DNA from: Candidatus Heimdallarchaeum endolithica | GTDB lineage: Archaea; Asgardarchaeota; Heimdallarchaeia; Heimdallarchaeales; Heimdallarchaeaceae | Direction: 5' to 3' | DNA length: 64,000 bases | Assembly: GCA_021513715.1 (NCBI GenBank) | Contig: CP084167.1 | Location: forward strand, 2,176,001-2,240,000 | Shown: piece after piece, positions 20,937 through 30,071 of the stretch | How the letters are laid out: each line of letters opens with the position of its first letter | Numbering within the stretch: the first letter of the stretch is position 1 | The notes under the pieces: generated by a model | What the model was told of the DNA's origin: nothing | The model's database searches: none | What the model saw: only the letters and a program-made list of their open reading frames with translations | Program-made: the position numbers and the translations under genes

Positions 20937-22601
20937 TTGCATGTAATGAAAAAAATTGTTAATAAAAATGCAAATTCAGATATCTTGAATCTTTTGCGTT
21001 GTTCTACTACTACAGAATTATTACATCTCCTTAAAAAGCAACAAGAACTGGATTTAGAAAAAAATAACTTAAAGAAAATAAGCAAATTAAAAGTAGATTC
21101 AATTACTAGAACGGAGTTAGAATCTCTTAAATTAGTCTTTATGATTTTTATAAATAAAACAATAAAAGAAATAGAAAACTCAATTTATAATAAAGTAGGA
21201 AAAAAGGAATTTGAAAAGAAGTACAAGCACTTTTTTAGAACAATTAATGAGATTGAAATAGAAGCTTTTGTTAGAATCATCTTATTTTTAGTAGGAATAA
21301 AAGAGGAAGTAGTTTTTGTTAATGATCCACGAGCATATGTTGAGAGATTTCATATAATTTATCTTCTGAGCACATTAACGGTAGGTTATATCGATGAATT
21401 AGTGGGAACAGCAGAAGAGACTCTATGTTTTGGTAAATTTGGAAAGAGGAAAAATAACGGATTTGATCAGTTACTCCTAGGGAGGGACACTTCAGGGAAA
21501 TATATAATTAAAACAATAAACTTGAAGTTTAACGGTTCAAATAACGTATATTTAAAACGTAAATCTAAACTTTTTGAAAAAATAAACACTGAAATAGATA
21601 GCCTAGATAAGGAGGTGAAGGGGAAGAAAGAAATAATAAGGATGTTATTAAGAAAAAGAAGAAGTTCTCTACACGATATTGGCTTAGATTTCCTAAGAAA
21701 AGAAAAAAACGGAGATCTAAAAGAAGCGCTAATAAAAAGTGGTTTAGATCTTGATACAATAAATCTTATCTTAAATGCAGCAATAAAACAACATCAACTT
21801 ATTTCTTTACTTGAAAATGGTTGGACATTTGAAGCAACAAAAAACCTTCAAGGATATTTAGTAGTTACAAACGATATAGTCAATTATATAGATCTAGTGA
21901 GTGAGAACAAATCTATAGTGAGAATTGAAGCAACTGATCTTCAACCAAGAATTAACCTTGATTTTATCGAGATTCCATCATTTGAAGAAAAAAATGAAAA
22001 TAAAAATATTTTCAAAAAAATAGATAATCTTCTTCTCACGAGACTGAAAAAGAGAAAATTTGTTTATAACCTAGAAAATAAATATAGTTTTATAGAGACA
22101 ATCATCAAGATTCAGGATGTTCTTTATAATATTATTACAAAAGAGGGGCTATTCAAGGATTTTGAAGTTTTAAGCAGCTATGAAACAAAACACCGTTTAG
22201 AATTTATTGGGTGCAAAGATGAGCTGTTTTACTATTACTCTTATTTAGAAAAATGGGCTTCTAGATATGCAATTAGAACTTACGACGAAATAGTTCTTAA
22301 TTTAATGCCAACAAATGAACGTTTCTCTTTAATAACAAAAATTTCTGAAAGTAAAAATATTGAAACAATTAACAATATTAAAAGTTTTACAGAGCAAATA
22401 TTCAAAGAAATAATAAAGAAAATAGAAAATGTGGATTTTACAAACCTTTCTTTAGAAGAAATAGAAAATATATTAGCCAATAATTCTTCAATAGCGAAAA
22501 AAGTTACAGAATTTTTCAAATTTAAAGAAGGAACTATAGATGGCAATTGGATAGGACATAAGATAACCGAAAAAAGAAACATGATTCTATTTTTTACGTA
22601 A
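20937..22601 (+). CDS. Hypothetical K/E/I-rich protein with a degenerate PD-(D/E)xK-like motif; possibly the 5' part of an interrupted gene
   Basis: 554-aa ORF; NNGFDQLLLG...YIIKTINLKF; its stop coincides with the left junction of the TnpB element. Confidence 0.55.
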   Translation: MHVMKKIVNKNANSDILNLLRCSTTTELLHLLKKQQELDLEKNNLKKISKLKVDSITRTELESLKLVFMIFINKTIKEIENSIYNKVGKKEFEKKYKHFFRTINEIEIEAFVRIILFLVGIKEEVVFVNDPRAYVERFHIIYLLSTLTVGYIDELVGTAEETLCFGKFGKRKNNGFDQLLLGRDTSGKYIIKTINLKFNGSNNVYLKRKSKLFEKINTEIDSLDKEVKGKKEIIRMLLRKRRSSLHDIGLDFLRKEKNGDLKEALIKSGLDLDTINLILNAAIKQHQLISLLENGWTFEATKNLQGYLVVTNDIVNYIDLVSENKSIVRIEATDLQPRINLDFIEIPSFEEKNENKNIFKKIDNLLLTRLKKRKFVYNLENKYSFIETIIKIQDVLYNIITKEGLFKDFEVLSSYETKHRLEFIGCKDELFYYYSYLEKWASRYAIRTYDEIVLNLMPTNERFSLITKISESKNIETINNIKSFTEQIFKEIIKKIENVDFTNLSLEEIENILANNSSIAKKVTEFFKFKEGTIDGNWIGHKITEKRNMILFFT

Positions 22602-22748
22602 TTTACAGTTGTTGAGGAAAAAGGAGAGAAAAAAGAGGAGAAAGGAGAGAGAGGAAGGAGAGGGGTTTTTATAGGGAAAAAAAGTAAAAGTAAGTAAGAA
22701 GAGAAGAAGAAAAAATAAACAGAAAAAGAAAAGAAGGAAGGAAAAAGA

Positions 22749-24200
22749 ATGGTGGAAGACGTCGTCAAAACCTTGAAAGTGAGAATAAAGAATGAGGTAT
22801 TGACGACGAGGAAGAAGGAAAGGTTATGGAGAATAACGGGGAGAGATACAAGGATAATAGAGAAGTATGTGAGAATTATTCACCACAACAGAAGAAAAAT
22901 ATGTACTAAAACTAAAAATGGGAAAATAAGAGTGCATAGAGGAAAATTAGATGAACTGACACTAACTACTTCAAAAGTTAAAGAAGAAGAGAGAAGAAAG
23001 ACTGTTCCTCACGATCTGAAGAGAATGTTCCCTTATTGTTCTCACAATGAGTTTCAAGAGTGTAGAGATATAGCCGTACAATTATATGAACAAGGGTATA
23101 GACCCAGTCCTACTCGTCCTCCAATAAAGAGAGCAAGAAGGCAACTAATTAATGGAAAAAGGTTCATCCTTATCCATCTGCCAAAAGAGAAGAATAACAC
23201 TCTCACTCGTTGGTGGGTGGGGATAAGAGACTCGTTAGATACGTGGAGAAGAAACACCCCCTATCATCAGAAACTATGGTTACCTTTAGAGATGAGCACT
23301 TTCCACCAGAAAGAGTTAAAGAAAGGGAGGGTGAAAAGTTTAGAACTAAGATATAAACGTTCTACACATGAATGGTGGGTGTATTTCCAACTAAGAGTAC
23401 TTCCTCCTTCTTTTTATCCTACTAAAGAAGATAATTCTTCTTCTCTTCCTTCAGCTGTGCTGGGAATAGATCTAGGGATAAACATTCCTGCTGCAGGAGT
23501 GTTACTGACCCCTAAAAAGAAGTTAACAAAAAAAGAGATAAAGTTCTGGTATAACAAACAGTGGAATAGAATCAATCATCGATATAAACTCAAACTTTCC
23601 CGTCTTCAGAGGAAAGCGGCTTTAAATGACCAGTCGGGTAAAAAACACCAGATTTACCGTTTTCTCGCTCTTCTTCGTCGGAGATATAAAAACGTTAAAC
23701 GGGCATATATTTACCAATTTATAAGCGACGTTGTGCAGACGATAGAAACTTATGCTCGAATGTATGACCTTTTCGTCGTCGTAGGTTACCCTAAACACAT
23801 TCGAGAGGAGAAAGGAAAAGGTAAAAGTACTCGTAATTTTCGTAGAAAACTTCACCAGTGGAATTTTTCTCTTGTTCTTACTCTTCTTCGTCGGGCATTG
23901 ATACTTCGAGGTTTTGACCCTCACCGGATATTGACGATAGAAGAAAGAGGAACATCCTCTCATTGTTCTCGTTGTGGAAGGAAAGTTATCCGTCCTGTTA
24001 GAGGTTTAGTCCATTGCTCCTCTTGCGGTTATACTTTCCACTCTGATCTCACAGGGGCAATGAACATCGCACGAAAGTTCCTTGGTGTTCTTTTCCGTCC
24101 TCAAGGAAACACTATCACTGATTACCTCACTGGTCAACGATTCAGTTCTACTCATTTCATTGTTTGCCTAGGGCTCAGCCATTGGTTGCAGCCCCAGTAG
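22749..24200 (+). CDS. tnpB: TnpB RNA-guided endonuclease with rearranged RuvC-II
   Basis: RuvC-I LGIDLG; RuvC-II position VVVGYP; IEERGTS then Zn finger CSRC...CSSC; RuvC-III HSDLTGAMNI. Confidence 0.92.
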   Translation: MVEDVVKTLKVRIKNEVLTTRKKERLWRITGRDTRIIEKYVRIIHHNRRKICTKTKNGKIRVHRGKLDELTLTTSKVKEEERRKTVPHDLKRMFPYCSHNEFQECRDIAVQLYEQGYRPSPTRPPIKRARRQLINGKRFILIHLPKEKNNTLTRWWVGIRDSLDTWRRNTPYHQKLWLPLEMSTFHQKELKKGRVKSLELRYKRSTHEWWVYFQLRVLPPSFYPTKEDNSSSLPSAVLGIDLGINIPAAGVLLTPKKKLTKKEIKFWYNKQWNRINHRYKLKLSRLQRKAALNDQSGKKHQIYRFLALLRRRYKNVKRAYIYQFISDVVQTIETYARMYDLFVVVGYPKHIREEKGKGKSTRNFRRKLHQWNFSLVLTLLRRALILRGFDPHRILTIEERGTSSHCSRCGRKVIRPVRGLVHCSSCGYTFHSDLTGAMNIARKFLGVLFRPQGNTITDYLTGQRFSSTHFIVCLGLSHWLQPQ

Positions 24201-24420
24201 ACAAAAAAAGAAGATAATTCTATTCTCTTTTAGAGTTAATTCTTTCTTTTTTGTCTCTCGTGGAGTGAAGAAAAGAACTTACAACTCTTTTCTTCTTTAT
24301 GATTCCCACGTTTCGTGTATGATGTCTGTTTCAACTCCTTTATAGTATTGTATGGCTTGGTTGATTTCAAGAGATTAAACTCCTTCAGTTTTTTCTCTTA
24401 CAAGACAGAGTGCGAAAAAC
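24199..24420 (+). ncRNA. Putative TnpB omegaRNA (reRNA) scaffold
   Basis: Three consecutive stem-loops (24199-24256, 24259-24310, 24311-24417) end just before the right junction. Confidence 0.55.
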
Positions 24421-24437
24421 TTTACGTAGAAAAGTAA

Positions 24438-25238
24438 ATCATATCAAAAGACACGTTTGTTATACTAGAAAACGAAAGGGGTGATCTTTTAAGAGTAAGC
24501 GAGAACAGAAAAAGCCCACTGATAACTTGCAAATTCAATTTTTTAAATGAATTGATAAAAAATGTTGATATAAGGAACTTTAGCCCTGTTCTGTTGCACG
24601 AACCAATGTATTTTAAGATAGATAAAAAAGGAAAACTTTTCGTAGACTTTGGTAACTCAAGAATGATAGAGAAAAGAGAAGCTTGGATAAAATATTTAAA
24701 AGAAAAGTACAATTTAAGTGAGGGAAAACTGTCTATTCTGAAAAAAAGAGCAGGGCTATCAACAGCAATAAAACAAGGAATGTCTATAAACGGAGTAAAT
24801 ATGCTGAAAGGAAAAGAAGAAGATATAGCTCTGATAATAGTGATTATGTGGGAATACCAACAAGTATGGAACAAAGTAGGAGAAAAATTCGTGGAATTGA
24901 TAAAAGAAAAAGGTTTTTCGAATGCCAGAAAAGAGAATGCCAGAAAAGAGAATGCCAGAAAAGAGAATGCCAGAAAAAAGAATGCAAAAAAAGAATATGA
25001 AGTGACTAATCAAAACAAGATAAGAGTGAAAGAAGGAAAAGAAAAAAGAGAATACAAAGTTAAACTGGTGGGAGAAAAAGAAAAAAAGCCAAACGTACAA
25101 AAGAAAAAAGTAAACTTACCAGAAGAAAACGAATTGGTAAAGAAATACTTGAAGAGATTAAGAGAAATAGCAGAGAGTGAAGTATTCAAAGGCAAAAAGG
25201 GGGAAATAATAACAATAATAAGAAAACTAAAAATGTAA
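24438..25238 (+). pseudogene. Probable 3' remnant of the gene interrupted by the TnpB element (ORF track 24552..25238)
   Basis: Frame is open upstream of the called TTG back to 24438; no clear SD or ATG; same K/E/I-rich composition as 20937..22601. Confidence 0.45.
24920..24994 (+). repeat. 15-bp in-frame tandem repeat (GAATGCCAGAAAAGA, ~5 copies; ENARK)
   Basis: Three exact and two degenerate copies read directly. Confidence 0.9.
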
Positions 25239-25334
25239 TGGCGACCCTGGGCGGATTCGAACCGTCGACCGCTGACTAGCTTCTCTCAACTGAGATTAGA
25301 AGGCCAGCGCTCTATCCTGCTGAGCTACAGGGTC
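25239..25334 (-). tRNA. tRNA-Arg(UCU) with 19-nt intron at 37/38 and encoded CCA
   Basis: Reverse complement GACCCTG..GCTC..GAGC..CTGGC CTTCTA[atctcagttgagagaagct]A GTCAG..TTCGAAT..CAGGGTC G CCA; canonical bulge-helix-bulge (CTTC/GAAG). Confidence 0.96.
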
Positions 25335-27913: not shown

Positions 27914-28238
27914 AAAGATAAGTTTATAACGCTTGAAAAACTGTGCGAAGCAAGAGGAAAGAAAAATACAGAATTGTAATGGTGAGGGATTCTTGGGTAA
28001 AGTTGACAAAATCAAATTATAAATAATAGTAGCAAAAAGCAAAAATAATGTTACTAGCATAAAATATTAGAATAGAAATTGCACAGAAAATTAAAAGTGA
28101 GAGGAGGACCTAATTACTTTCCTCTTTTTTCACATTCACAATTATTATGCTTACGCTGATTATCTTTGCAGTACTTTTCTTCTGATGTATGTTTTCTCTC
28201 ATCAACTTAATTTTTGTACAATATTTTTGTACGCCAAT

Positions 28239-28444
28239 CTTGCTCTCGGAAAGATCTGTCTAGGAGGGAGATCTAAACACTCATTGAGCCAGAGGAGAAG
28301 GTTGAGCACTCCTCCACCGTGGAAACTGGATGAATAAATCCTCTCACACGGGAAAGTTAAGTCGTATTCAAATTTTCTTTGATTTCTTTCTTTATGCGAA
28401 TGTTTTTTTTTATCCTGACACGCCGTGCCAGCTTAGAGAGTAAG
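28239..28444 (+). ncRNA. Unidentified structured RNA (~205 nt)
   Basis: GC-enriched intergenic island with a closing stem CTTGCTCTC/GAGAGTAAG and five internal hairpins. Confidence 0.5.
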
Positions 28445-28664
28445 TATTTTTCTTAACATCTATCTTTTTTTTTCACTCTCTACATTAATAATGTCTTTTC
28501 ACTATTTAAACACCAATTTTTTAATTTGACAAAAATGTACAAAAAAGCTCTTCATGAAACCAATCGTACAAATATATAATAAAAAGAAAAGGTGAACCAA
28601 AACCTTATGACCCATCAATCATTAATATTTGAATCAATTTATAAAAAAGGAAAAACGGATTATT

Positions 28665-28790: not shown

Positions 28791-30071
28791 ATGACTAGTG
28801 TTCATAAGCAGTATCTCGACAAGAATGTTTACGAAGCGACAATTGAGCGTTTAGAGCTTATACTAGATGAATTTGAAAAAGTATACATCTCTTTTTCAGG
28901 AGGAAAAGATTCTTCTGTTTTACTGCAAATATTATTAGAAGTAGCGGAGAGAAAGGGAAAACTACCTGTAGGTGCACTGTTTGTTGATCTGGAGGCACAG
29001 TATAAAGCTACTATCAGACATGTTGAAGAGATGATTATTGATAACCCAAAGGTTGAGCCCTATTGGATTTGTCTCCCTATTAATCTGCGTAATGCAGTAT
29101 CAGTCTATCAGAGCCAATGGCAATGTTGGAACCCAGAAGAGAAAGAAAAATGGGTAAGAGAGATGCCGAAATATGATTGTGTCATCTCAGATGTAAACTT
29201 TTTTCCTTTTTTCCGTTATGGAATGGAATTTGAAGATTTTGTTCCAAAATTTGGAGAATGGTACGCGAAGGGAAAAAAGACCGCTTGTCTCGTAGCTATC
29301 AGAACAGACGAAAGTTTAAACCGCTTCAGAACAATTAAGAGCACAAAAAAGGAGACGTACAAAGGGTTGGGATACTCAACAAAAATAAGTGAAAACGTCT
29401 ATAACTTCTATCCTATTTACGATTGGAGAACAGAGGATATATGGACAGCAGTAGGTAAGTTCAACTTCAAATATAATAAAATATACGACCTAATATATAT
29501 GAAAGGAAAATCTATACATGAAGCGAGAATATGCCAACCGTACGGAGACGACCAGAGAAAAGGGCTAGAACTATTCCGTTATACTGAACCAGATACATGG
29601 GCAAAGGTAGTAGAAAGGGTCTCGGGGGCGAATTATGGGAACATGTATGTCAACACCTACTTGATGGGAAGAAGAAAAGTAATCTTACCAGAGGGACATA
29701 CATGGAAAAGCTATACAGAGTTCTTATTAAACACCTTACCCAGATTTGAAAAAGAGTGGTACTTAAGAAAATTCGATGTTTTCTTCAAATGGTGGGCGAA
29801 AAAAGGAAATTATTATTACCCGAGATATGATAGAGAAAAAGAAAAATTCGTTTATGAAGTAATAGACGAACATAACTATGCAGATGGACTACCTAAAGTA
29901 ATACCAGACTACGCAGAAAGGAAAATGGAAACAGAAAGAAAAGTGCCTTCGTGGAGAAGATTGGCAGAAGTGATAATAAAAAATGACAAACTGTGTAAAA
30001 GGTTAACTTTCTCAGGAACAGTAGGACAATATGCACTATACGAGCACTTGAGGGATGTGTATGGATATTAA
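28791..30071 (+). CDS. ibrA: IbrA/YbdN-like PAPS-reductase-family (PP-loop, DUF3440) protein
   Basis: SFSGGKDS, DLEAQY, IRTDESLNR, YPIYDW, RICQPYG and PSWRR motifs. Confidence 0.88.
   Translation: MTSVHKQYLDKNVYEATIERLELILDEFEKVYISFSGGKDSSVLLQILLEVAERKGKLPVGALFVDLEAQYKATIRHVEEMIIDNPKVEPYWICLPINLRNAVSVYQSQWQCWNPEEKEKWVREMPKYDCVISDVNFFPFFRYGMEFEDFVPKFGEWYAKGKKTACLVAIRTDESLNRFRTIKSTKKETYKGLGYSTKISENVYNFYPIYDWRTEDIWTAVGKFNFKYNKIYDLIYMKGKSIHEARICQPYGDDQRKGLELFRYTEPDTWAKVVERVSGANYGNMYVNTYLMGRRKVILPEGHTWKSYTEFLLNTLPRFEKEWYLRKFDVFFKWWAKKGNYYYPRYDREKEKFVYEVIDEHNYADGLPKVIPDYAERKMETERKVPSWRRLAEVIIKNDKLCKRLTFSGTVGQYALYEHLRDVYGY

Follow-up and report, generated by a model that had tools for sequence, protein, structure and literature searches.

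TnpB nucleases with a glycine at the position of the canonical RuvC-II glutamate have been described under several names, namely RIIr (PMC10691335), TnpB2, including the archaeal TvTnpB (PMC10530073), and D-phi-G/Ealt (PMC10711439), and this rearranged site is already known from archaeal TnpBs (PMC10691335, PMC10530073). Two clades of proteins with the alternative glutamate have been distinguished by motif: DPG marks Fanzors together with the pro-Fanzors of cyanobacteria, and D-hydrophobic-G marks the other clade (PMC10711439). For archaeal TvTnpB and the mimivirus Fanzor2 ApmFz2, the alternative glutamate was found to be essential and the arrangement active (PMC10530073), and Cas1H-Asgard (aCas1-associated) TnpB groups have been defined as well (PMC10691335). 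IS607 elements such as ISXfa1, CboIStron, and ISC1926 carry the same dinucleotide (GG) at either junction, with a single copy in the empty site, and lack inverted-repeat ends (PMC6188088); for CboIStron, a TAM of TGGG and a self sequence of TCGG were reported (bioRxiv 10.1101/2023.11.20.567912). The genome of Candidatus Heimdallarchaeum endolithica was described as repeat-rich, with TnpB going unmentioned (PMC8813620), and no description of an element with inverted ends, an AT core, and TnpB was found in the literature searched.

The genome consists of a single contig of 3.33 Mb (CP084167.1). We analyzed a window of 64,000 nucleotides of it, to which all coordinates refer unless they are given as genome positions. 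It harbors a 1.86-kb element with tnpB as its sole ORF, which we consider likely to be a non-autonomous, TnpB-only mobile element of Heimdallarchaeaceae, moving by the mechanism proposed below. The locus is organized as follows:

20937-22582, + strand: interrupted host gene, 5' part (813 aa when rejoined; no Pfam hit)
22581-22606, + strand: left junction AT (22581-22582, C-AT-G) and left imperfect terminal inverted repeat (18/26 matches to the right end, AT counted)
22607-22748, + strand: purine-rich 5' leader, no ORF on the + strand
22749-24200, + strand: tnpB, RuvC-II-rearranged, 483 aa (D241, G346, E399, D433; C4 zinc finger 406-426)
24160-24442, + strand: predicted omegaRNA scaffold, overlapping the last tnpB codons and ending at the right junction (its 5' limit is a guess)
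24417-24442, + strand: right terminal inverted repeat and right junction AT (24441-24442, C-AT-A)
24443-24462, + strand: predicted guide in the host flank, matching the empty allele (proposed from TnpB biology)
24443-25238, + strand: interrupted host gene, 3' part, with a short ENARK repeat

The 483-aa product matched PF07282 above the cut-off and NF040570 (NCBIfam guided_TnpB) with 84.6 bits, under the cut-off of 100, and its closest named homologues were found in Ca. Heimdallarchaeum aukensis and other Heimdallarchaeaceae. Its catalytic motifs read LGIDLG (D241), VVVGYP (G346), IEERGTS (E398/E399), and HSDLTGA (D433), and its zinc finger is of the C4 type (C406-C426). The codons of the key residues are located as follows:

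23469-23471, + strand: Asp241, RuvC-I, motif DLG and not DPG
23784-23786, + strand: Gly346, at the canonical RuvC-II Glu position
23943-23945, + strand: Glu399, the invariant alternative Glu in ExxTSxxC
24045-24047, + strand: Asp433, RuvC-III

A first-pass annotation, made from the letters alone, had described a Gly in place of the RuvC-II Glu, two intact Asp residues, and a Glu further downstream. This was confirmed by an alignment of 101 homologues, in which D241, G346, E399, and D433 were each conserved in 101/101. As compensator it had named a pair of glutamates, E398 and E399, 52 and 53 residues past G346, which holds for the latter residue only: position 398 is Glu in just 4/101 homologues and D, N, G, or Q even among near-identical TnpB copies, so that the compensating residue is E399 alone. 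With G346 and a Glu within the range of about 45-55 residues downstream, the protein is by its sequence a member of the known and widespread rearranged-site TnpBs (RIIr/TnpB2, including archaeal TvTnpB), with which it shares the Gly, a D-hydrophobic-G RuvC-I motif, the two intact Asp residues, and an alternative Glu that precedes the zinc finger within ExxTSxxC. The rearranged site is common in archaeal TnpBs and also occurs in an unrelated IS605 TnpB of this genome. What sets the present clade apart from RIIr/TnpB2 is its greater length (470-610 aa, including a conserved LxxWL tail) and its carrier, an inverted-repeat element with AT junctions instead of IS605. Within this clade, the protein, described as long in the annotation, stays below the median of 535 aa, and its supposedly unusual N-terminus superposes on Cas12f/TnpB from residue ~4, so there is no extra domain. 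The C-terminal tail, noted there as well, proved to be real and conserved, forming a predicted helix (467-480) with W479 in 100/101 homologues; the stretch encoding it reaches into the first hairpin predicted for the guide RNA.

The AlphaFold model (pLDDT 86) revealed a TnpB/Cas12f fold; in comparison with known structures, the best match reached Z 19.5 over 367 aligned residues at an rmsd of 5.7 A, and Cas12f/TnpB matches ranged from Z 16 to 19.5. E399 is placed with high confidence directly after strand 394-398, and the ExxTSxxC spacing is identical to that of Fanzor2-like proteins. When the window copy was compared with intact copies from its own genome and from that of the sister species, dN/dS values of 0.11-0.19 were obtained (16 pairwise comparisons), and judged by these ratios the intact copies are under purifying selection. 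Its invariant D-E-D residues, this selection, the predicted structured 3' RNA reaching to the element boundary, and a TAM-like target bias together give good support to the view that the protein is a compact RNA-guided nuclease in working order, and we infer activity from them. A protein that binds without cutting, nuclease-dead or a TldR-like regulator, would fit the loss of the canonical RuvC-II Glu, but the three acidic residues are invariant across 101 diverse homologues and tnpB is mobile rather than fixed next to a partner gene. Moreover, the annotation's statement that such a substitution with a downstream Glu is compatible with activity agrees with the equivalent arrangement being active in TvTnpB and ApmFz2 (PMC10530073), and we regard a dead nuclease as improbable.

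The protein had also been called relevant to Fanzor origins, which in its strongest form would place this Asgard TnpB lineage near the Fanzor ancestor, inherited via the archaeal host of eukaryogenesis. The alternative Glu is shared with Fanzor1, Fanzor2, and pro-Fanzors, and some Fanzors likewise reside in non-autonomous elements, the inverted-repeat, transposase-free architecture being known from Fanzor1 and Fanzor2* elements (PMC10711439). Trees were built on the RuvC region, with 100 taxa under a mixture model and 40 taxa under LG+G4; the DPG-type set, which stood for Fanzor2 only, was picked from viral contigs by motif, and 17/28 DPG-type representatives adjoined an IS607 tnpA. In the 40-taxon tree, all alternative-Glu proteins fell on one side vs canonical TnpBs (99/95), so that the rearrangement may be old and shared, though this would hold for many archaeal TnpBs alike. 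However, the DPG motif of Fanzors is missing from the 483-aa TnpB, which reads GIDLG, with D-hydrophobic-G across its clade, and in the 100-taxon tree 39 archaeal proteins, this one among them, formed a supported clade separate from the DPG proteins. The phylogenetic check against Fanzors that the annotation had suggested, run with Fanzor2 as the only Fanzor group, spoke against the link: the AU test rejected a Heimdall+Fanzor2 clade (p=0.0048; 40 taxa, LG+G4). Mimivirus Fanzor2 also ranked below Cas12f and other TnpBs, both by profile (E 4.9e-10 vs 3.9e-20) and by structure (Z 15.9 vs 19.5), and Fanzors have been traced to cyanobacterial IS607 pro-Fanzors (PMC10711439). Based on its DLG motif, separate clade, and archaeal host, in a comparison with Fanzor2 only, the 483-aa TnpB does not appear to be a Fanzor precursor; a Fanzor link is not supported, and an ancestral position is highly improbable. 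The rearranged active site as such, being already known, carries no special tie to Fanzor origins.

In the 100-taxon tree, the sister group consisted of Asgard Cas1-associated TnpBs. Their Thorarchaeota relatives carry GTTCACTCA downstream of tnpB at 44/71 loci and adjoin a divergent gene for a protein of ~1,600 aa at 47 loci. The N-terminal part of this protein is a helical domain with a fold resembling those of Cas1 and casposase (Z 9-13 for the top 12 hits); next comes a PD-(D/E)XK domain, and the long rest of the protein is unannotated. Pfam and NCBIfam gave no hit for it, and an Atlas search nothing above 0.9. As modelled, the pairing of tnpB with a Cas1-like neighbour matches the Cas1H-Asgard groups of PMC10691335. 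In contrast, GTTCACTCA was found downstream of tnpB at 0/21 Heimdallarchaeaceae loci, no aCas1 neighbour lies beside the 483-aa TnpB gene, and the Cas1-like protein was not found in 31 family genomes, this one included, with the query used; this branch displays its own inverted ends instead. The genome analyzed here has three Cas1 genes. A further clade member, P0125 (852 aa), lies behind an IS607 tnpA and has MazE/AbrB-like N-terminal repeats, and another protein, P0138, possesses N-terminal HTH domains. One Asgard TnpB clade thus appears to be served by three mobilizing systems, namely Asgard Cas1, the serine transposase of IS607, and a third enzyme that would act on inverted ends with an AT core.

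The element is present here in 14 near-full copies, besides several fragments, and at least 11 copies were found in the sister genome; the inverted repeats of other copies match at 16-23/26 positions. Within the inverted ends lies a palindromic TACGTA. Excision in silico of the element with one AT rejoined the neighbouring ORFs to the 813-aa host gene, which has weak homologues in other family members; in the sister species this gene is intact (809-aa open frame), and the site carries a single AT followed by A. Insertion takes place mostly at C-AT-(G/A) and adds one further AT. A 4-bp CATG target duplication was also considered and is excluded, since the left side reads CATG and the right CATA and the sister's empty site has one AT followed by A; it is further contradicted by the CATG/GATG junctions of another TnpB family. 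The same end architecture is shared by a 383-bp MITE and by a canonical-Glu TnpB family, unrelated to the present one, together with its 357-bp MITE; other genera of Heimdallarchaeaceae have it too. The 357-bp MITE has seven copies in the genome, one of them in the window (28200-28556) with the C-AT-G end type, and derives from the canonical-Glu family, to which its 3' 160 bp are 80% identical. A second, related subclade of these elements has the right end in common and shows no clear left inverted repeat. At six loci of this subclade, a 5' extension that varies in length (~430-630 bp upstream of tnpB) seems to include the end of a neighbouring gene, and a DUF87 ATPase is adjacent in some loci.

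The 3' region folds far better than shuffled sequences (z-score -5.6), and conservation among copies stops sharply at the right junction, reading ...TAA(A/C)TCAT before variable flanks, a pattern that fits an omegaRNA with a guide drawn from the flank. A structured 3' RNA up to the element boundary and then a variable guide, both predicted, is the arrangement of the TnpB family. The putative omegaRNA matched no Rfam family. Covariation across genera was weak, and consensus folding across genera gave just one hairpin, as the alignment was poor.

The many independent insertions allow a concrete TAM prediction for a compact nuclease. For this TnpB family, 30 independent insertions with a C-AT left junction were counted, two further copies having a non-C junction. 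None of the 30 lies at T-C-AT, the C being preceded by A, C, or G (V-C-AT); T precedes 34% of genomic CATG, and 0/30 against this background gives a p of about 3e-6. The right end of the element itself reads T-C-AT. The canonical-Glu TnpB family with the same end type behaves differently, inserting at T-C-AT in 10/10 cases with T-G-AT as its own right end; therefore, the target of each TnpB family differs from its own right end. The orphan 383-bp MITE lies at T-C-AT at 5/11 sites (Fisher p=0.0006 vs 0/30, orientation assumed). From these sites we predict a TAM close to V-C-A-T (V standing for A, C, or G) that spares T-C-A-T. As in IS607 elements, it would reach past the core and be unlike the right end of the element itself. 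Alternatively, the bias could come from the step of insertion, through a mobilizing enzyme that reads element-specific ends, rather than from TnpB.

In the mechanism that we propose, an enzyme encoded elsewhere would move the element, with excision and insertion through the AT dinucleotide. The tnpB transcript would read through the right end and yield an omegaRNA with host flank as guide, and TnpB (D241/E399/D433) would cut the empty allele or excision scar beside a 5' TAM of about V-C-A-T, after which repair from the filled chromosome would restore the element. As the element's right end is T-C-A-T, it would itself escape cleavage.

As to the enzyme, a survey of ~160 related loci revealed no partner in cis apart from IS607 (one distant member) and aCas1 (Thorarchaeota branch); Y1 transposases occurred only beside remote homologues, and none of the elements with AT-core inverted ends at these loci was seen to contain a mobilizing enzyme. 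In the two closed genomes, this one and its sister, IS607 (NF033518), IS110, and IS630 transposases had no match. A single tyrosine recombinase is present in this genome, and PF00589 was not detected in the four relatives examined. We name two paralogous solo serine recombinases of the host (240 and 249 aa; genome positions 316728-317450 and 405348-406097) as the main candidates, a 2-bp core between inverted half-sites being typical for serine recombinase sites. The pair was matched in 28/30 family genomes and not outside the family at E 1e-12, and close TnpB homologues are confined to the same family, Heimdallarchaeaceae, a co-occurrence that counts as one clade and not as independent evidence. 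Their catalytic motifs look intact, apart from N for D in DRLxR of the 240-aa copy here, and both lie in fixed, syntenic housekeeping loci without AT-core inverted ends. Since PF00589 was not found in the relatives examined, they might also have a chromosomal role, e.g., in dimer resolution. The best candidate for the movement is a serine-type 2-bp exchange, possibly by this pair. With IS607, the element has in common that a dinucleotide occurs at either junction and singly in the empty site; it differs by its AT core, its inverted-repeat ends, and the lack of an IS607 tnpA match in either closed genome. Tentatively, and with more doubt than confidence for the scheme as a whole, one might see here a symmetric-end TnpB/omegaRNA class of Heimdallarchaeaceae without an enzyme of its own, in which at least two unrelated TnpB lineages and their MITEs share ends, AT-core movement is performed by the conserved host serine recombinase pair, and each TAM is tuned away from the own right end.

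Two other modes of movement have to be weighed. True inverted repeats with a 2-bp AT duplication might point to a DDE cut-and-paste derivative (IS630/Tc1-like) whose transposase is undetected, lost, or supplied by one of the resident IS families, with TnpB acting as proposed above: inverted ends and a gained dinucleotide are the DDE pattern, inverted ends were found in all six DDE-associated TnpB groups (PMC10691335), and a 2-bp duplication and a 2-bp core exchange are inseparable by sequence alone. Yet, the IS630-type domain PF13358 (DDE_3) was matched in 0/5 element-carrying genomes, two of them closed, the resident IS4/IS5-like, IS481-, IS6-, and ISH3-like elements bear other ends, and PF01609 had no hit in a genome that contains seven copies of the element. 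Furthermore, IS630/Tc1 elements duplicate TA, whereas the junction here is AT, and the nearest relative with a mobilizing enzyme in cis carries an IS607 serine transposase, so that we regard the DDE origin as possible, though rather unlikely. Most solo tnpB genes are of the IS605/IS1341 type and are mobilized by a Y1 (HUH) TnpA; that the present gene is such an ordinary case would be in line with the IS605 OrfB label given to homologues by NCBI and with the one Y1 tnpA of this genome. However, IS200/IS605 ends are asymmetric hairpins without gained bases, whereas inverted repeats with AT at both junctions are found here. That sole Y1 tnpA (genome positions 925118-925884) is itself split after its second codon by a MITE of the 383-bp family, which has the same end type as the tnpB element and gained one AT; it belongs to an IS605 element with different ends and with an alternative-Glu TnpB unrelated to the 483-aa protein. 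Movement by Y1 is thus very unlikely, and the serine-type exchange described above is retained as the preferred reading.

Two minor features lie downstream in the window. An atypical tRNA-like call by ARAGORN (25239-25334, - strand) with an undetermined anticodon is probably spurious or intron-containing, and a gene with a DUF3440/PAPS-reductase domain was identified at 28791-30071, where the surrounding region may be accessory.
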